This document shows, piece by piece, positions 33,380 through 43,705 of a stretch of 64,000 nucleotides of DNA (positions are counted from its first letter, which is position 1; each line of letters begins with the position of its first letter). Source of the DNA: Caulobacterales bacterium. GTDB taxonomy: Bacteria > Pseudomonadota > Alphaproteobacteria > Caulobacterales > Caulobacteraceae. The stretch spans positions 7,267-71,266 of the forward strand of contig JBIOEG010000003.1 of assembly GCA_044445825.1 (NCBI GenBank), in the 5' to 3' direction. The translations under genes and the position numbers were made by a program. The notes beneath the pieces are model-generated. The model ran no database searches, had not been told where the DNA came from, and saw nothing but the letters and a program-made list of their open reading frames with translations.

Positions 33380-33589
33380 GCTGGCGGGGGCGCCGACGAA
33401 GGGGAACCACGAAAAGCACGAACGCGCGCTTTGTGTCGGCGGCGGTTCGGTAGGACGCCGGGCCCTGGCCAAATCAGCACGCAAATGGTGACGTGACGCG
33501 CCCGGCCCGCGGGCCGGCCCTGGTCTTTGACATCGTGAAACGAATAGCGCGCGGCCGGTCACCGGCCGGCGCACAGCCACGTTCCCGAT

Positions 33590-33722
33590 CCCCCAATCCG
33601 AAATTCCCCGCGCAAGCGGGGACCCAGGCTTTTTTCCATCGGTGGGGCCGCGCGATGGTGGGCGGAAGGAACAAACAAAAACGCCTGGGTCCCCGCTTGC
33701 GCGGGGAATTTCGGATTGGGGG
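33590..33722. repeat. REP/BIME-like long inverted repeat with 40-bp perfect arms
   Basis: 33590-33629 is the exact reverse complement of 33683-33722; each arm contains a CCCCGC-GCAA-GCGGGG hairpin. Confidence 0.85.
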
Positions 33723-33759
33723 TAGTGGGAAAGCCTGGGGTGGGACCCGGTCCCCGCCC

Positions 33760-33956
33760 CACCTGATCCGCACCTGTTATGCATCGATAACAGGCCTGTT
33801 TGGCGCCTGTTATCACCTGTTATCACCTGTTCCTGAGCGATATCAGGTGGCCGCAAGCCATTGAACAATCACGGCTTCCAGACCGTAACAGGTGGAAAAA
33901 ACCGTGAAATAACAGGTGGAACAGGTGAATAACAGGTCGGAACAGGTCGGAACGGG
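33760..33956. repeat. Polarised array of CCTGTT/AACAGG motifs
   Basis: Five CCTGTT and six AACAGG copies, many spaced 9-11 bp apart. Confidence 0.85.
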
Positions 33957-33975
33957 CGGCGCGGCGGGCGCGGGT

Positions 33976-36175: not shown

Positions 36176-37264
36176 TCAACCGCGCGCCCGGGCCAGCGCC
36201 GCCGGAAAACTCGCGCCCTCGCGCTGGAATGCGTAGTCGCGCAGGCCGTCCACGGCCGTCCAGGTCGGGTGGTAGGGCGAGCCGTCGCCCCAGCTGCCGT
36301 CCCTGTGCTGCGTGCGCAGCAGGTAGCGGCTGGCCCTCTCGATGTCCGGGTCCTGGTCGCCGACACCGAAGCCCTTCAGGGAATCCATGAATTCGCCGAG
36401 CAGCTCGCCGTCGCCGCTCTGGATATTGGCGGAGATGTTCTGCTTGAGGAAAGCGAACTCATCAGGCAGCCAGTCAGGACGTAGGCGTAGGGCGCTGTAA
36501 TCATTGAGGGTGTAGACGATGTGGGTGACCGCATAGGCGATCGACTCAAAGTCCGGGTTGTCCCCGCCTTCGTAGCCGCGGTAGGGGCGCATGCGTGGCA
36601 ACAGGCCGGTCACCTCCGGGTAGCCGGCGCCGAGACGCACACCATAGCTCTCCCCGACAAAGGCCACGATCAGCGCGCTGGACAACACGTCGTACGGGCT
36701 CTGCATGTCCAGCTGGGCGCCGCAGTAGGCGCAGGTGCGCCGCCCCCGCACATTGTCGCGGCCGCATTGGCCGCAGGTGTCGGGTACATCGTCCGGCGGC
36801 GGCTCGCGAGCCGGGTCGAACCAGAAAAAGTCCTCGGCCTTGAACCGCGTCGCGGCGCGCGCCAGATCGTCGTGCATTCGTTCGTCGGGAGCGCCCAGCC
36901 GGTCGGCGCAGCGCGATGCGCCTGCGAACTCATAGACCTGGTCGGAGTTGGCGTCGGGCGGAACAACCGGATGGCTGCGGCGCCAGGCCAGGGCGCATCG
37001 CTGGCCCATCCGCCGCGCCGCGCTCGCGAGCACGGGGTCGGCCGCGGTCACCGAGATGTTGTAGAAGGCCCAAAGGTAGTCGTCGCCGTGATCGGCGAAG
37101 TTCTTCGGGACCTGGGCGGACCGGTAGATGGCGTCGAGCCCGCGGCGGGCGGCGCGTGTGCGGCGTTCGGGAGCGTCGGCCGCCGGCGCGCGCCGCGGAT
37201 CCGCGGCTGCGGCCACGCCCAGGGCAAGCGGCGCGAGCAGCAATCGGCGCCGGGTCGGCCTCAT
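36176..37264 (-). CDS. Tat-signal hypothetical protein with a zinc ribbon and a prenyltransferase/squalene-cyclase-like QW repeat
   Basis: MRPTRRRLLL; CGQC...CAYC; AYAVTHIVY; LLRTQHRDGSWG; ATG overlaps the upstream stop (ATGA). Confidence 0.72.
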   Translation of the reverse strand: MRPTRRRLLLAPLALGVAAAADPRRAPAADAPERRTRAARRGLDAIYRSAQVPKNFADHGDDYLWAFYNISVTAADPVLASAARRMGQRCALAWRRSHPVVPPDANSDQVYEFAGASRCADRLGAPDERMHDDLARAATRFKAEDFFWFDPAREPPPDDVPDTCGQCGRDNVRGRRTCAYCGAQLDMQSPYDVLSSALIVAFVGESYGVRLGAGYPEVTGLLPRMRPYRGYEGGDNPDFESIAYAVTHIVYTLNDYSALRLRPDWLPDEFAFLKQNISANIQSGDGELLGEFMDSLKGFGVGDQDPDIERASRYLLRTQHRDGSWGDGSPYHPTWTAVDGLRDYAFQREGASFPAALARARG

Positions 37265-39498
37265 GGCGTCGGCGCGATTTGCTGCTTCAGCAGGAACGCG
37301 CCGAAGACGTTGGAGTAGTCGTCGGTCCACAGCCCGATGTCCGAGTTCAGCCGGACGCCCTCCCAGCGCTGATCTTGGGCGATGGGACCAAGGTCCTGCG
37401 CGCGGCGCACGACGATCATCCAGTCCGCGGCGTCCTTGTAGTCGGTGCTGGGCGGGGCGTTGTCGCTGTCGGAGTCGGTGGACTTGGGGTCCTCCCACAG
37501 GCGCGTGGTCAGGCCCATCGCCTTCGAGATGTTCGCCACCACGGGCGGCAGTTCGAGAAACTGGTTGGAGACGTGGAACACCACCATGCCGCCGGGACGC
37601 AGCTTGGCCAGATAGAGCTGCATCGCCTCGCGCGTCATCAGGTGGACCGGTATGGCGTCGGAGCTGAACGCATCCAGGATGATCATGTCGTAGGCCGCGT
37701 CCGGCTCGCGCGCGAGCGACAGTCGAGCGTCGCCCATGACGATCTCGGGGTGCGCCGGGCAGTCGCGCAGGAAGGTGAACAGGGCCGGGTTCCTGGCGAT
37801 CTTCACCACCGCCGGATTGATCTCGAAGAACGTCCAGCGCTCGCCCGGGTGGGCGTAGCAAGCCACTGCGCCGGCGCCCAGGCCGACGACCGCAACGGCG
37901 CGCGTGGCCGGACCGCCGCCCACCTTGGCGAACAGCTGCCCGAGCGGACCGTCAGGGTGATAGTAGCTCAGCGGCTGGAGCCTCCGGGCGGGGTCCCGGC
38001 TCTGGGCGCCATGGTCGATGGTGCCGTTGACCAGGACGCGCATGGGCGGCGAGTCGCGGTCCACCACCCGCAGCACGCCGTAGAAGTTCCGGGCGTGCGC
38101 CACCTCCCGGCTCGCGCCGCCGGCGATGACCGCGCCGGAGACGATGAGCGCCGCGATGCTGAGCGCGAAACCCACCGGGCGCGCGCGCAGGCTGAAGACG
38201 ATCAGCGCCAGGATCAGCACCGAACCCTGCGCGGCGCCGTTGAGATCGCTCACGTCGAGCTTGGCGAGCCGGAATGCCAGGAGGACGAGGGCGATGATGG
38301 CCGCCGGCGCCAGCAGGTCGCCGCCGGCGCCGCGCCAGTCCTTCAGGTTCGGGAGCGGCCCGGGCCGCAGCGCGCAGGCCAGGACCAACACCAGCGGGTA
38401 TTCGATGATCCTGGCGAAGAGCAGCGGGGCGATGAGCGCGTTGAAGATCCCGCCCAGAGCGCCGCCCAGGGAGACAATCAGGTAGAACTCGGTGAGGTGG
38501 GCCGCATCGGGCCGCGTGCGGGCGATCTCCTGGTGGCACAGCAGGGCGGTGACGAAGAACGCGGCCAGGTGCAGGCCGAACAGCGGCAGCGAGGCCCCGC
38601 TCTCGTTGGTCAGCAGCGTAACCGCCAGCGCCACCAGCAGCAGGGCCTGCAGGTGGACCGTCCAGCGCTCCGGCAACGTCACCAGCCGCTGAAACGCAAG
38701 CACGAAGCTCAGCAGGTAGAGGGTGAGCGGGATCACCCAGAACAGCGGCGTTGCCGCCACATTGATCGTGAGGTGGCTGGTGACGCCGAGCAGCAGGCTC
38801 GACGGGACGAACGCCAGCACCAGCCAGCGCAGCCGCAGCGCCAGCCCCGGGCGCGTGGCGGCCGGGGCCGGGGCAGGTTCGGGCGAGGGCGCGATGAGAC
38901 CACGGCCGCGCGCCAGCACCACGGCCGCGCAGGCCGCGGTCAGCGCGATCAGCAGCACATAGCCGGTGGTCCACCAGGCGCTCTGCCGCAGCAGGCTGAG
39001 ATGAGGCTCCACCAGTGTCGGATAGCTGACCAATGCCGCGAGGCTGCCGAAGTTGCTCGCGGCGTAGAGAAAATAAGGATCGCCAGATGACCTTTCGCCG
39101 AGGCGGGAAAACCACACCTGCAGCAACGACGCCGTGCCGGACAGGATCACGAAAGGCGCCCCGACGATGACGCAGAGGGCGCCGAGCTGCCAGAGCACCG
39201 GGTCGGTGTCGCCCTTCGGCATGGCCAGGCCGCTCACCGAAATCGGCAGCAACGCCACGGCGGCGAGCAGCAGCGCCGGGTGGATCAGGAGGGCGAGGCG
39301 GTGCGTCAGCCAGCGCGCGCTGGCGTGCGCGTAGAGGTAGCCCAGCAGCAGGGCCACCTGAAAGAACACCAGGGAAGTGTTCCACACCGACGCGCTGCCG
39401 CCGAGCAGCGGCAGCAGCAGCCGGGACGTCAGCAGTTCGGCCCAGAACAGCAGGGCGGCGCCCACCAGCAAGGCGACGCCGTACAGGACTTTCATCAT
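37261..39498 (-). CDS. Fused membrane (MFS-like)/spermidine synthase-like SAM-dependent transferase
   Basis: Many TM helices followed by LVNGTIDHG, VVGLGAG, EINP and DAFSSDAIPVHL; start at ATG 39498. Confidence 0.9.
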   Translation of the reverse strand: MMKVLYGVALLVGAALLFWAELLTSRLLLPLLGGSASVWNTSLVFFQVALLLGYLYAHASARWLTHRLALLIHPALLLAAVALLPISVSGLAMPKGDTDPVLWQLGALCVIVGAPFVILSGTASLLQVWFSRLGERSSGDPYFLYAASNFGSLAALVSYPTLVEPHLSLLRQSAWWTTGYVLLIALTAACAAVVLARGRGLIAPSPEPAPAPAATRPGLALRLRWLVLAFVPSSLLLGVTSHLTINVAATPLFWVIPLTLYLLSFVLAFQRLVTLPERWTVHLQALLLVALAVTLLTNESGASLPLFGLHLAAFFVTALLCHQEIARTRPDAAHLTEFYLIVSLGGALGGIFNALIAPLLFARIIEYPLVLVLACALRPGPLPNLKDWRGAGGDLLAPAAIIALVLLAFRLAKLDVSDLNGAAQGSVLILALIVFSLRARPVGFALSIAALIVSGAVIAGGASREVAHARNFYGVLRVVDRDSPPMRVLVNGTIDHGAQSRDPARRLQPLSYYHPDGPLGQLFAKVGGGPATRAVAVVGLGAGAVACYAHPGERWTFFEINPAVVKIARNPALFTFLRDCPAHPEIVMGDARLSLAREPDAAYDMIILDAFSSDAIPVHLMTREAMQLYLAKLRPGGMVVFHVSNQFLELPPVVANISKAMGLTTRLWEDPKSTDSDSDNAPPSTDYKDAADWMIVVRRAQDLGPIAQDQRWEGVRLNSDIGLWTDDYSNVFGAFLLKQQIAPTP

Positions 39499-39719
39499 GC
39501 AAGGCGCTCCGACCGGCCCCTGACGGTTGCGGCCTGGCGACGGACGCAAACGGCATTTCCCCAACACGTACGACACTGCCGCGACACGGTTGAGAAGGCC
39601 AGTTCAATGAGCGATTTGGGCGTCTGAACCGCCGTGAGGACGCCCTCCGAGCGCCACCCGCCGCAGGCTTGTCAGTGCAGTGGTTGCGGAGCATGGTTAA
39701 GCCGAGGTCGGAGGGTCGC

Positions 39720-39935
39720 ATGAAACTGAACGCCGTCGTTTCCGGGTTGGCTTGGCTTTGTCTGGCGACGGCGTCGACGGGTCCGATGGCCTACGCCCAG
39801 GCGACCGGCGGCTCGCCCGGCAAGGACGCCCATGCCTCGAACATCGGCGGCAGGAAGGGCGCGCACTCGCACGCCCGCCAAACTCATTGCCACCGTCGTG
39901 GGCGCAGTTGCCATCACCACCCGAAGGCCCATTGA
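39720..39935 (+). CDS. Small secreted His/Arg/Cys-rich peptide (paralog 1 of 4, 71 aa)
   Basis: GGAGG RBS; MKLNAVVSG signal; AYA-QATGG. Confidence 0.75.
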   Translation: MKLNAVVSGLAWLCLATASTGPMAYAQATGGSPGKDAHASNIGGRKGAHSHARQTHCHRRGRSCHHHPKAH

Positions 39936-40079
39936 GGCGCCCAGCGTGCGCCTTCGCGGGTCGCTAGGCAGGCGACGAACGCTCCGAATCGCGGTGGGTT
40001 GCCGCGGTGCGCGCACCGCCGCTGGGCGCTGTTCGCCGGTTTCGAGTTTTGCGTAGTGGTACAAAAAAGAGAGGACAAC

Positions 40080-40304
40080 ATGAAGCTCAGTTCAATCGTC
40101 TCGGGGTTCGCCCTGCTCGCCCTCGTCGCCGCCTGGTCGGCGCCCCCGGCCTTCGCCCAAGCGACCGGCGGCAGTACTGCCGTGAAGACTGCGCCGAAGA
40201 CTACGTCCGGCAAGAAGGCGACCAAGACCAAGAAGGGTCACAAGGGCGGCAAGAAGGGCAAGAAGGGCGCCTCCACCACGACCACGACGCCTCCGCCCAA
40301 GTAG
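40080..40304 (+). CDS. Small secreted Lys-rich peptide (paralog 2 of 4, 74 aa)
   Basis: GAGG RBS; MKLSSIVSG signal; AFA-QATGG; SGKKATK; C-terminal PPPK. Confidence 0.82.
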   Translation: MKLSSIVSGFALLALVAAWSAPPAFAQATGGSTAVKTAPKTTSGKKATKTKKGHKGGKKGKKGASTTTTTPPPK

Positions 40305-40457
40305 GGCTAAGGCGCGCCCGCGCACCGTCGCGCGGCGTGTCATTCACTGGTTCAGCGTCCAGCGGCGCGCGACGAGCAATGCTTGCGCGCGCCGATTTGG
40401 TTGTGTACGGCGGCTTCGTCATTGCCACGCAGGGTCGCGTGGGCTGGGGAGGTCACC

Positions 40458-40676
40458 GTGAAGTTGAAAGTTATTGTTTCCGCATTCGCCCTGGTTTGTT
40501 TGGCCGCTGCCTGGGCTGTCCCGGCCGGCGGCCCTGCCTGGGCCCAGGACACCGGCGGCGACAAGGCCGCCTCCGGGAAGAAGGCGACGAAGCCGAAGAC
40601 GGCGTCGCATACGCACTCGCACGAAAAGAGCAAGAAGGGCAGCGGCGGCGGCACGACTACCCAGCCGCCCAAATAG
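40458..40676 (+). CDS. Small secreted Lys/His-rich peptide (paralog 3 of 4, 72 aa)
   Basis: GGAGG RBS with GTG start; AWA-QDTGG; SGKKATK; C-terminal QPPK. Confidence 0.8.
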   Translation: MKLKVIVSAFALVCLAAAWAVPAGGPAWAQDTGGDKAASGKKATKPKTASHTHSHEKSKKGSGGGTTTQPPK

Positions 40677-40802
40677 GCGGCTCGCGGGCTGCCTAACGTC
40701 ACTTCCAGCGTGTCGGCGCGCGCCCTTGCCGCGCGCTGCCTTTAGTCATGATTGCAGGGTCGGCGAGAGCGGCGCATGGTCGCGGTTTCCAGGGAGGCAC
40801 CC

Positions 40803-41015
40803 ATGAAACTCAGCGCCCTCATTTCCGGTTTCGCTCTTCTTGCGCTCGTCGCGGCATGGTCCGCCCCTGCGGCGGCCCAGGCCACGGGCGGCACCACCAA
40901 GGTGGCGCACACGGCCGATTCCGGGAAGAAGGCCACCAAGACCAAAAAGGGTCACAAGGGCGGGAAGAAGGGCAAGAAGAGCAGCGGCGGCTCGACCACG
41001 CCTCCGCCGAAGTAG
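40803..41015 (+). CDS. Small secreted Lys-rich peptide (paralog 4 of 4, 70 aa)
   Basis: GGAGG RBS; AAA-QATGG; 20-aa block identical to paralog 2; C-terminal PPPK. Confidence 0.82.
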   Translation: MKLSALISGFALLALVAAWSAPAAAQATGGTTKVAHTADSGKKATKTKKGHKGGKKGKKSSGGSTTPPPK

Positions 41016-41222
41016 GCGCCTGTCCGCGCCCAGGCCGGCGCGCCGGCCGGGCCGGCCGCGGACGAGATGAACGCCGCGGCCGGCCGCGAGCAGCAGTCCG
41101 GGCGCGCCTAGACACCGCCGCCCGCTCATCTCCGGCCACAATTGTCGGGCGCGCCGGTGCTATAGGTTCGCTGTCCACCAGATCGAACCGATCGACGCAC
41201 ATCGTCTTGAGAGGAGAGCGCC

Positions 41223-41342
41223 ATGGCCAAGGGTCAGAAGCGGAGCAACAAGGAAGTCCGCAAGCCGAAGGCCGACAAGCCCAAGCCGGCGCCAGCGGCG
41301 CGGTCGTTCCTGACGCCGCCGTCGAGCGCGAAGAAGAAATAA
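41223..41342 (+). CDS. 39-aa basic small protein MAKGQKRSNKEVRKPKADK... (absent from the ORF track)
   Basis: GAGGAG RBS, ATG at 41223 and TAA at 41340-41342; translated by hand. Confidence 0.75.
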   Translation: MAKGQKRSNKEVRKPKADKPKPAPAARSFLTPPSSAKKK

Positions 41343-41856: not shown

Positions 41857-42312
41857 ATGGAAGAGCTGAGCGTGGACTTCGAGCCCTTCGTCGACGACGA
41901 GGTGCGCAAGTTCATCGACGACGGCATCGACAACCACAACATCGCCGTCACCGGCCTGCCGGCCTATTTCCCCACCAACTTCGTCCTGCGCTCGGAACGC
42001 GGCGACGTGCTCGGCGGCCTGCTTGGAACGATCTGGGGCGGGTGGCTGCACGTCGGCACGCTGTGGGTGTCCGAGATCGTTCGCGGCCAGGGCCACGGCT
42101 CGGCGCTCCTCGAAGCCGCGGAGGCCTACGCCAGGGCGCGCGATTGCACCGGCATCTTCGTCGACACCTTCAGCTTCCAGGCCCGGCCGTTCTATGAGCG
42201 GCACGGCTTCACCTGCTTCGCCACCCAGGCCGACTACCCGAAGGGTCACGCCCGCCACTTTCTCGAAAAGCGGCTGGCCCAGAGCACGATGGGGTCAGGT
42301 GGAATCACCTGA
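41857..42312 (+). CDS. GNAT family N-acetyltransferase
   Basis: LWVSEIVRGQGHG motif A; TFSFQARPFYERHGF. Confidence 0.92.
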   Translation: MEELSVDFEPFVDDEVRKFIDDGIDNHNIAVTGLPAYFPTNFVLRSERGDVLGGLLGTIWGGWLHVGTLWVSEIVRGQGHGSALLEAAEAYARARDCTGIFVDTFSFQARPFYERHGFTCFATQADYPKGHARHFLEKRLAQSTMGSGGIT

Positions 42313-42322
42313 CCGCTGAATC

Positions 42323-42400
42323 GTGCTCTAGATTCAAAAGTGTAGAGCCTGATTCAGGGTTCGGATCGCTTCGATCTGAACCCATCAGGCTCTAGAGCAC
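42323..42400. repeat. Nested palindromic TAGAGC...GCTCTA element (MITE/RPE-like) containing the stop codon of the second nuoF
   Basis: GTGCTCTAGA (42323-42332) / TCTAGAGCAC (42391-42400) outer arms; inner imperfect hairpin at 42343-42394. Confidence 0.65.
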
Positions 42401-43705
42401 CGGTTCCATTCTCGCGCCCTGCACAAGAGGGCGGCCGGCGCGATAGCTGGCGATGCGCGCTTCCACCTCGTGGCGGAAGTGACGGAACAGGCCCTGGATC
42501 GGCCAGGCGGCGAAGTCGCCTAGGCCGCAGATGGTGTGGCCCTCAACCTCCGAGGCGACGTCGAGCAGCATGTCGATTTCGCGCATCTCGGCCTCGCCGG
42601 TGACCATGCGCTGCATGATCCGCCACATCCAGCCGGCGCCCTCCCGGCACGGCGTGCACTGGCCGCAGCTCTCGTGCTTGTAGAAGTAGCTGAGGCGCGC
42701 GATGGCCCGCACCAGATCGGTGTCACGGTCCATGACGATGACCGACGCCGAGCCTAGGGCCGTCTTCAGATCGCGCAGCGAGTCGTAGTCCATGAGCGCC
42801 TGCTCGGCCTGCCAGGCCGGAATCATCGGGGTCGAACCGCCGCCGGGCAGCACGGCCTTCAGATTCCCCCAGCCCCCGCGAACCCCGCCGGCGTGATCCT
42901 CCAGCAGTTGGCGCAGAGGGATCGACATCGCCTCTTCCACATTGCAGGGACGGTTCACGTGGCCGGAGATGCTGATCACCTTGGTGCCGACGTTGTTCGG
43001 CCTGCCGATGCCTGCGAACCAGTCGGCCCCGCGCCGCAGGATGGTTCCGACCACTGCGATGCTCTCGACGTTGTTCACATTCGTCGGACAGCCGTAGAGC
43101 CCGGCGCTGGCGGGAAACGGGGGGCGGATGCGCGGTAGCCCCTTCTTGCCCTCCAGGCTCTCCAGCAGCGCCGTCTCCTCGCCGCAGACATAGGCCCCGC
43201 CGCCGTGCGTGACGAAAAGGTCGAAGTCCCATCCGTGTACGTTGTTCATCCCGATCAACCGAGCGGCGTGGGCCTCGGCGATGGCCGCCTCCAGCCTGGC
43301 CCGCTCGGCGGCGTATTCGCCGCGGATGTAGATGTAGCCGGCGTGGGCGTTGATCGCCCGGCCGGCGATAAGGCAGCCCTCGATCAGCAGGTGCGGATCG
43401 TTGCGGATGATCTCCCGGTCTTTGCAGGCGCCCGGCTCTGACTCGTCCGCATTCACCACGAGGTAGTGCGGCCGCACCGGCTCCGCGGGCAGGAAGGACC
43501 ATTTCATCGCGGTCGGGGCCCCTGCCCCTCCGCGCCCGCGCAGCCCCGACGCATTGACCTGAGCCAGGATCCAGTCGCGGCCCAGCGCGATCATGTCCGC
43601 CGTGGCGTTCCACGCGCCGCGCCGCCGCGCGCCCTCCAGACCCCAGTCGTGCAGACCGTAGAGGTTGGTGAAGATCCGATCCCGGTCCCGTAGCACGCCC
43701 GCCAT
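42392..43705 (-). CDS. nuoF: Second, stand-alone NADH-quinone oxidoreductase subunit F paralog
   Basis: [21 protein letters not shown] and [10 protein letters not shown]...C; full length with no frameshift. Confidence 0.93.

Follow-up and report, generated by a model that had tools for sequence, protein, structure and literature searches.

The 64,000-nucleotide stretch of DNA analysed here (the window, in whose numbering all unassigned positions below are given) comes from a Caulobacteraceae genome and carries, at 39720-41015 on the + strand, a tandem array of four small genes, P1 to P4, whose products appear to be exported, strongly cationic peptides. P1 (39720-39935, +) encodes a 71-amino acid precursor, in which the signal MKLNAVVSGLAWLCLATASTGPMAYA is followed by Gln and by the rest of a His/Arg-rich mature part of 45 amino acids. 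The P2 precursor (40080-40304, +; 74 amino acids) has a mature part of 48 residues ending in TTTTTPPPK. P3 (40458-40676, +) starts with GTG and specifies a 72-amino acid precursor, whose 43-residue mature part contains SGKKATKPK and HTHSHEKSKKGS and has the end TTTQPPK. The P4 precursor (40803-41015, +; 70 amino acids) contains a 45-residue mature part with the same 20-amino acid core as in P2.

The start codons of the four genes are spaced 345-378 bp apart, and a GGAGG-type Shine-Dalgarno sequence lies 5-9 nucleotides 5' of the start of each open reading frame (ORF). P2, P3 and P4 have the SGKKATK motif in common, and their C-terminal ends are PPPK, QPPK and PPPK, respectively. The 20-residue block SGKKATKTKKGHKGGKKGKK is identical in P2 and P4, with the underlying 60 nucleotides differing at 4 positions, all synonymous. 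When the 4.35-Mb genome was searched with a profile derived from P1-P4, only P1-P4 matched (E 5e-35 to 5e-29; next match 1.4e-4). Since its own profile finds nothing else in the genome, and since relatives in other phyla can be aligned with it over their full length, the array is more than a chance occurrence; P1-P4 are, by these sequence features, real and separately translated genes. They stem from an old tandem duplication of a ~360-bp cassette; Tandem Repeats Finder run on the array detected short codon repeats only and no ~360-bp unit. Elsewhere in the same genome (contig C6, locus L005, 1420-1707, -) a 95-amino acid secreted His/Arg/Gly-rich protein containing AMAQDTGPSRDR and GHKGGHRGGHRGGGHGG is encoded. 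It gives a weak match to the family profile (E 1.4e-4), and a distant relationship to the His-rich P1 type is possible.

All four precursors begin with MKL(N/S/K) followed by a hydrophobic h-region, and each has a classical Sec signal with a signal peptidase I site of the AxA-Q type. The predicted cleavage sites (hyphenated) are AYA-QATGG, AFA-QATGG, AWA-QDTGG and AAA-QATGG for P1 to P4, and the predicted released products have 43-48 residues and a charge of +6 to +13 at pH 7. The mature N-terminus is probably a pyroglutamate. The mature parts are rich in Lys, Gly and Thr, they contain 0-1 residues of the V/I/L/M/F/W/Y group per peptide, and their grand average of hydropathy is between -1.35 and -1.66. 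Mature P2 has 13 Lys and no Asp or Glu (charge ~+13), and mature P1 has 9 His, 5 Arg and 2 Cys. In the AlphaFold2 model of P2, which was built with a 31-sequence alignment, the only helix spans residues 3-19 of the signal and the rest is coil (pLDDT 53-73). The mature peptides are thus predicted to be disordered polycations without a hydrophobic core, and the signals point to export, cleavage and a location in the cell envelope.

Much of this agrees with an earlier note on the same DNA. Its description of four ORFs of 70-74 codons, each with its own ribosome binding site, a related signal and an AxA-Q(A/D)TGG cleavage site, was read again in the sequence, as were the identical 20-residue block in the second and fourth paralogs and the SGKKATK and PPK motifs in three of them. 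The composition count agreed with what it gave for mature P2 (48 amino acids, 13 Lys, no acidic residue) and for P1 (His/Arg-rich with two Cys). Its proposal of an undescribed family of small Sec-exported polycationic peptides was also upheld by the signals, the charge and the absence of any matching curated model: no model in Pfam, NCBIfam or Rfam describes the peptides. Searching the four peptides with hmmscan at E <= 1 against Pfam-A and NCBIfam gave no match to Asr, and in Pfam no match to RcnB or to a metal-binding family. A match to New_glue (E 0.0012, under the cut-off) was discarded as compositional. The warning that such ORFs are easily missed by annotation did not hold, as public records list ORFs of the family as 'hypothetical protein'. 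Neither catalogued nor studied so far, the family nevertheless belongs to a known kind of protein, small exported polycations that are disordered, for which Asr is the precedent.

A conspicuous property of the family is the conservation of its core. In the family alignment near-invariant columns comprise Q at position +1, TGG, the pattern GKKA.K.KK.HKGGKK.KK, one Thr and the terminal P-K. The core, GKKATKTKKGHKGGKKGKK...TTPPPK, forms a ladder of KxxK steps with a period of three. In SGKKATKTKKGHKGGKKGKK lysines occupy positions 4, 7, 10, 13, 16 and 19, i.e. six Lys in an exact i/i+3 arrangement, and in an extended or polyproline II-like chain the six charges of the ladder would share one face. 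The core is assembled from xxKxxKK heptads (ATKTKK-GHKGGKK-GKK), and the relatives P0023 and P0039 enlarge it as GHKGGKK repeats. Locus L032 (837-1208, -) encodes a repeat-expanded member of 123 amino acids (SGKKATK, two copies of KEHKGGKTGGTAD, TTTTPPPK at the end) beside a normal 72-amino acid copy; the heptad block can therefore be amplified. Disordered polycations are rarely so constrained in sequence. The near-invariance favours a specific partner over bulk charge alone, and such a partner probably recognizes the core.

Relatives were searched for among 5.8 billion proteins. Seventy sequences of 59-120 amino acids were collected that could be aligned over their full length. All 70 are laid out alike, with a signal and AQATGGSTD, then a short segment of variable sequence before SGKKATKTKKGHKGGKKGKK, and a Gly/Ser/Thr segment leading to TTPPPK. 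An exhaustive profile search yielded 251 clusters (50% identity) at E <= 1e-3, 68 of them at E <= 1e-10. Collections of genome contigs and metagenome contigs contributed at least 3 related loci and at least 1, respectively. Across the mature part P2 is 70% identical to the acidobacterial relative P0003. The ratio of nonsynonymous to synonymous substitution rates (dN/dS, Nei-Gojobori), calculated for the mature part, was 0.04-0.45 in all pairs that did not include P1; between the genes of the window and the acidobacterial genes synonymous sites were saturated. The paralogs of the window are themselves old (dS 0.7-1.2), with dS 0.73 and dN 0.21 between P2 and P4, and dN/dS of 0.40-0.45 between P3 and either P2 or P4. 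Together with the relatives in another phylum, these ratios ruled out that the genes are spurious ORFs of a genome with 70% GC. Nor is the family diversifying, as the earlier note had called it: strong purifying selection acts on the mature core, which is near-invariant across phyla, and P1 alone has diverged radically. P1 and P2 are essentially unalignable in their mature parts (dN/dS ~1.2). At the equivalent position, however, locus L025 encodes a His-rich peptide with 38% identity to P1 (E 4e-6), and because of this counterpart P1 is regarded as a conserved subtype and not as a product of decay.

The distribution of the family is uneven. The host is Phenylobacterium-like: its operonic NuoF shows 84-86% identity with the NuoF proteins encoded by Caulobacteraceae metagenome-assembled genomes (MAGs) and by P. 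montanum. The family was detected in none of 36 genomes of the same GTDB genus and 24 of the same order other than that of the window, and among 401 genomes of the class, including the window's, it was detected in the window's genome only; four weak matches in the class (L027-L030) proved to be unrelated proteins. An even sample of Acidobacteriota gave 3 positive genomes out of 401. Among the relatives of the Terriglobia MAG G461, however, the family was present in 53 of 201 (E <= 1e-12), mostly as tandem arrays of 2-4 genes, and the named relatives come from Terriglobia or 'Ca. Angelobacter' MAGs. The main home of the family is a clade of Terriglobia (soil Acidobacteria), and it is not an alphaproteobacterial family, with 0 of 400 other genomes of the class and 0 of 36 of the genus containing it. 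Two phyla are counted for it. Methylomirabilota, the NCBI label of the MAG with locus L010, was considered as a third phylum and dropped, since the phylum samples drawn for it and for the Terriglobia MAG comprised one and the same set of genomes.

This distribution suggests transfer between phyla, and the array, together with the enzyme gene described below, would form an accessory block that was acquired by this Caulobacteraceae genome in one piece. The borders of such an island were sought by synteny with three genomes of the same genus; gene order around the second nuoF was not conserved and borders could not be drawn. In the group of G461 the genomic context is uniform: all 29 new loci, which were tested by tblastn, occupy the same slot, adjoining an HMGL-like gene and/or an M20/M28 peptidase gene, and in 20 of them both. 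The M20/M28 peptidase was considered as a partner and rejected, as no signal peptide was seen at its N-terminus (L011 translation); the arrangement is taken as inherited synteny. In one acidobacterial contig (L012, 6385-6783, +) a 132-amino acid secreted protein consisting of NPQPLPPG repeats is encoded between the array and the M20/M28 gene.

Upstream of the array a promoter-like element, TTGTCA-N17-CATGGT, is located at 39669-39697 (+), 28 nucleotides upstream of the P1 start codon, and an element with the same layout, TTGCAG-N17-CATGGT, precedes P4 (40752-40780, +). The single genes at loci L024 and L099 are preceded in the same layout by TTGCSG-N17-CAT(C/G)AT; P2 has a weaker version and P3 none. 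The motif GCAT(G/C)(G/A)TC is found ~30 nucleotides before the start of P1, P3, P4 and the L024 and L099 genes. The TTGnnn-N17-CATGGT elements may be promoters; they resemble the housekeeping-type alphaproteobacterial promoter. Scanning the region for E. coli-type promoters returned none, and predicted terminators were at chance level. Downstream of P4 a GC-rich stem-loop with a 12-bp stem (41050-41085, +) likely marks the 3' end of array transcription: the segment 41013-41110 folds with -65.6 kcal/mol, z = -2.6 relative to shuffled sequences. Hairpins after P1, P2 and P3 folded no better than shuffled sequences, so that terminators specific to each gene could not be demonstrated, the hairpin after P4 being the only one to surpass shuffled sequence.

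Directly 3' of the array, at 41223-41342 (+), there is a 39-amino acid Lys/Pro-rich ORF, MAKGQKRSNKEVRKPKADKPKPAPAARSFLTPPSSAKKK, without a signal peptide; its DNA is kept at 78-89% identity in several genomes of the genus, which the array is not. Two repeats were noted in the surroundings. One of ~120 bp (42270-42406), in the convergent gap between a GNAT gene and the second nuoF, is REP- or MITE-like and occurs genus-wide in many copies per genome with 77-92% identity. The other, of ~490 bp (33464-33959), has at least six more copies with 85-88% identity in the same genome (contigs C5, C6, C14, C37, C52 and C54).

On the other side the array is flanked by a divergent gene (37264-39498, -), 221 bp from P1, for a membrane protein of 745 amino acids, which was characterized by family match, AlphaFold2 model and fold search. 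The protein matches the NCBIfam model NF037959, 'fused MFS/spermidine synthase', with 62.3 bits (cut-off 40). Its AlphaFold2 model (pLDDT 89.6, pTM 0.90) starts with 14-15 long helices, after which come a beta-hairpin domain and, at the C-terminus, a Rossmann domain, and in a Foldseek search against the PDB the best 50 of 77 matches (E <= 0.001) were all spermidine synthases or polyamine aminopropyltransferases. Alignment with AtSPDS1 shows motif I as GLGAGA in place of GGGDGG, and the catalytic segment reads ILDAFSSDAIP, which departs from the canonical D-S-S-D-P, one of the two Asp of the catalytic region being displaced. In 60 homologs of the protein D609 is invariant and D614 near-invariant. 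With the SpeE model TIGR00417 it scores 13.8 bits (cut-off 249), and on this sequence evidence it is not a canonical SpeE. The number of Lys and Arg residues in the loops is 17 vs 5 if 15 helices are assumed, with the N-terminus inside and the catalytic domain outside, and 15 vs 7 with 14 helices, which is suggestive of a catalytic domain on the periplasmic side. The copy in the window is an extra paralog, the genus-wide copy (42% identical) being on another contig. In the literature we found no characterization of the NF037959 family and no report of a peptide partner for it. Directly downstream of the gene a 361-amino acid ORF (36176-37264, -) without a Pfam match was noted; a 358-amino acid protein is encoded at its position in L025 but not in L024 or L099.

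The enzyme's six nearest homologs (65-67% identity) fall into a single clade (100% SH-aLRT), and each of their genes has 1-3 small divergent genes directly upstream. Where the DNA was at hand, these upstream genes encode secreted peptides with the KAHKGGK motif (L025, containing KAHKGGKKGKKSSGGTTTPPPK; L024; L099; L104/L105); on the P0075 contig, which belongs to the six, the upstream gene of 79 codons was not read and its identity as a peptide gene is unverified. The flanks of the close-homolog loci, which contain genes for a glutathione S-transferase (GST), a 406-amino acid CxxCH protein and a cytochrome P450, are unlike those of the window, apart from the enzyme-peptide pair itself. The CxxCH protein (406-413 amino acids, CITCHA/CISCHA, no Pfam match) always adjoins the peptide gene in the alphaproteobacterial contigs with the GST/P450 context (L024, 3354-4574, -; L099, 2331-3572, -; L104, 1279-2505, -).

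A second instance of the arrangement was found in Terriglobia. In the genomes G460 (L009 and L033, with a near-identical metagenome contig, L114) and G863 (L041) one peptide gene of the core type lies 200-310 nucleotides from a gene of the enzyme family, in convergent orientation. In a tree of 58 enzyme sequences the G460 and G863 enzymes make up a clade of their own (100% support), which is placed among peptide-less Terriglobia paralogs and far from the alphaproteobacterial clade. Mapping the label 'adjacent' on this tree required at least two changes, and none of 500 shuffles did as well; by our own estimate, which assumes two such genes per 4-6-Mb genome, the chance of a placement within 500 bp is ~4e-4 per event. 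Adjacency of enzyme and peptide genes arose at least twice, independently and in different orientations. In G461 a gene of the enzyme family is present elsewhere in the genome, away from the peptide genes. We read the association, which the earlier note had not mentioned, as real but facultative.

Our preferred reading, to which we give a probability of roughly 45 per cent, is that the peptides are envelope polycations of the Asr type, possibly modified by the enzyme or working together with it. As soluble polycations of the periplasm or cell envelope they would attach to anionic polymers of the envelope or to client proteins, in the manner of Asr, with P1 as a His/Arg/Cys-rich variant responsive to metal or pH. 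The neighbouring protein with the spermidine synthase fold would be the best candidate for a partner, which may modify the lysines or act alongside the peptides.

Several observations weigh against this reading. The hidden Markov models of Asr are not matched, so the analogy is one of composition, and an Asr-like role of bulk charge leaves the near-invariant sequence unexplained. The enzyme gene was found in none of the 29 new loci of the HMGL/M20 lineage within flanks of 1.5 kb; it is likewise missing within ~6 kb in L011, L012 and the P0024 contig, and from the 5.5-kb downstream flank of L008. Twenty-nine homologs of the enzyme in the same class (37-47% identity), as well as those with 55-64% identity (L100, L026 from Aliidongia, L106 and L107), have no peptide gene nearby. 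Because motif I reads GLGAGA, the enzyme lacks the Asp that selects decarboxylated S-adenosylmethionine (SAM). As to transcription, one freshwater metatranscriptome contained a contig of 178 nucleotides covering 39942-40117, identical to the window save for a 2-nucleotide insertion, which is too thin for a claim of expression.

A more specific relationship between the two components can be envisaged, in which the peptides are ribosomally made substrates or primers of the enzyme and the epsilon-amines of their lysines are alkylated (aminopropyl, methyl or aminocarboxypropyl groups). Bacteria would in that case possess envelope peptides decorated with polyamine, comparable to the products of silaffin or hypusine-type lysine chemistry; we consider this reading unlikely. 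It draws on the repeated origin of adjacency, with unrelated enzyme clades and opposite gene orientations, and on the enzyme next to the array being additional to, and different from, the paralog found throughout the genus. The near-invariant KxxK ladder would suit a recognition motif, as proposed for the KXXK clusters of silaffins (PMC4557024), the Lys side chain resembles putrescine, the fold of the enzyme is that of spermidine synthase, and the loop charges (17 vs 5) favour a periplasmic catalytic domain. However, the topology could be one of 14 or of 15 helices, the periplasm is not known to contain a SAM-type donor, and the missing Asp for decarboxylated SAM and the displaced catalytic-region Asp also speak against this role. 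Nor does the genomic record help, as the peptides of the main Terriglobia lineage are encoded away from any such enzyme and most enzyme homologs have no peptide nearby.

The histidines raise another explanation, that the peptides are periplasmic metal buffers or metallochaperones, with Cu, Ni, Co or Zn bound by the conserved (G/A)HK element and by P1 through its many His and Cys. One near-invariant His does lie within the Lys block, the 9 His and 2 Cys of P1 are matched by a His-rich counterpart in L025, JGI labels one relative RcnB, and a distant secreted GHKGGHRGGHRGG protein is encoded in the same genome. Against these stand P2 with one His and P4 with two, both without Cys, the Pfam scan (E <= 1) that returned neither RcnB nor any other metal-binding family, and a neighbourhood without metal efflux or sensor genes. 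A role as metal binders is quite improbable.

A role as secreted antimicrobial or competition peptides, the former an option mentioned in the earlier note, would fit the small size, the export, the strong positive charge and the number of paralogs. It is very improbable here: the mature peptides, with 0-1 hydrophobic residues and no predicted helix, cannot form an amphipathic structure, the neighbourhood lacks genes for immunity, ABC export or maturation, and a sequence near-frozen across phyla is the opposite of arms-race evolution. That the peptides are envelope tethers, whose C-terminal Lys is cross-linked to peptidoglycan by an L,D-transpeptidase so that the wall gains positive charge, is hardly credible either, since the invariant C-terminal P-K of the core family is offset by the lack of a lipobox or other N-terminal anchor, by the fact that a terminal Lys is unsurprising in a protein with 27% Lys, and by the absence of a linked L,D-transpeptidase gene.

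The interest of the family lies in its frozen lysine ladder, in a distribution that hints at transfer and in its repeated capture beside an orphan enzyme family. Envelope biology has paid little attention to disordered polycations that are small and exported, of which Asr is almost the sole characterized example, and the present family abounds in the Terriglobia, one of the groups that dominate among soil bacteria. If alkylation of the lysines proved true, the widespread 'fused MFS/spermidine synthase' family would gain its first function; without modification, the peptides would still be a model for why a disordered polycation needs an exact sequence.

Comparison with known systems places the peptides as follows. 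They differ from membrane-active antimicrobial peptides in having no amphipathic or hydrophobic character, and from RcnB (PF11776) in giving no profile match (Pfam, E <= 1). With Braun's lipoprotein they share the C-terminal Lys, but the lipobox Cys is absent and the mature N-terminus is Gln. Another group of secreted peptides in Terriglobia, the KKEKKAKK type (56-83 amino acids; in 27 of 101 relatives of G460, E 1e-6 to 1e-10), is of similar size and has the same type of signal (PVFA-Q) and a Lys-rich disordered mature part, but it lacks the GHKGGKK core and the PPPK end, contains many Glu, and is encoded by single genes with no spermidine-synthase-like gene within 1.5 kb; the two groups may be homologous or convergent. 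At L063 (1865-2116, +) a Terriglobia peptide of this type is encoded beside a secreted Arg/Glu-rich paralog containing RHERREARKDRRQERRRDRRQRKEARKDRRQARRDARKD.

The neighbouring enzyme belongs with the NF037959 family by its score above the cut-off and its spermidine synthase fold, and it is unlike canonical SpeE in motif I (no GGGDGG) and in the D-S-S-D-P segment. In diatom silaffins KXXK clusters were proposed to be recognition sites for lysine-modifying enzymes (PMC4557024). Like silaffins and cingulins, the peptides have a secretory signal, a low-complexity Ser/Gly/Lys-rich composition and clustered KXXK, and a gene with an aminopropyltransferase fold adjoins them. Silaffin and cingulin lysines carry methyl and aminopropyl or polyamine groups, which in the present peptides would be hypothetical; silaffins are eukaryotic and unrelated in sequence, a link to silica is not seen here, and the enzyme is without the canonical decarboxylated-SAM motif.

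The closest parallel is with Asr (PF06392 / NF033636), the acid-shock periplasmic protein of Enterobacteriaceae, which is reported to be a disordered chaperone/aggregase, strongly induced by acid, that supports the integrity of the outer membrane under acid stress (PMC10746267). The peptides differ from it in showing no detectable sequence relationship (hmmscan, E <= 1), in a Gly-rich KxxK ladder ending in PPPK where Asr has Ala/Gln/His-rich repeats, and in their tandem arrays and linkage to an enzyme with the spermidine synthase fold. In both cases, however, a small Sec-exported precursor gives rise to a disordered cationic mature part without an enzymatic domain; that of Asr is rich in Lys, His, Thr and Ala, the peptides described here are likewise strongly cationic, and the compositional similarity pointed out in the earlier note is fair as an analogy.

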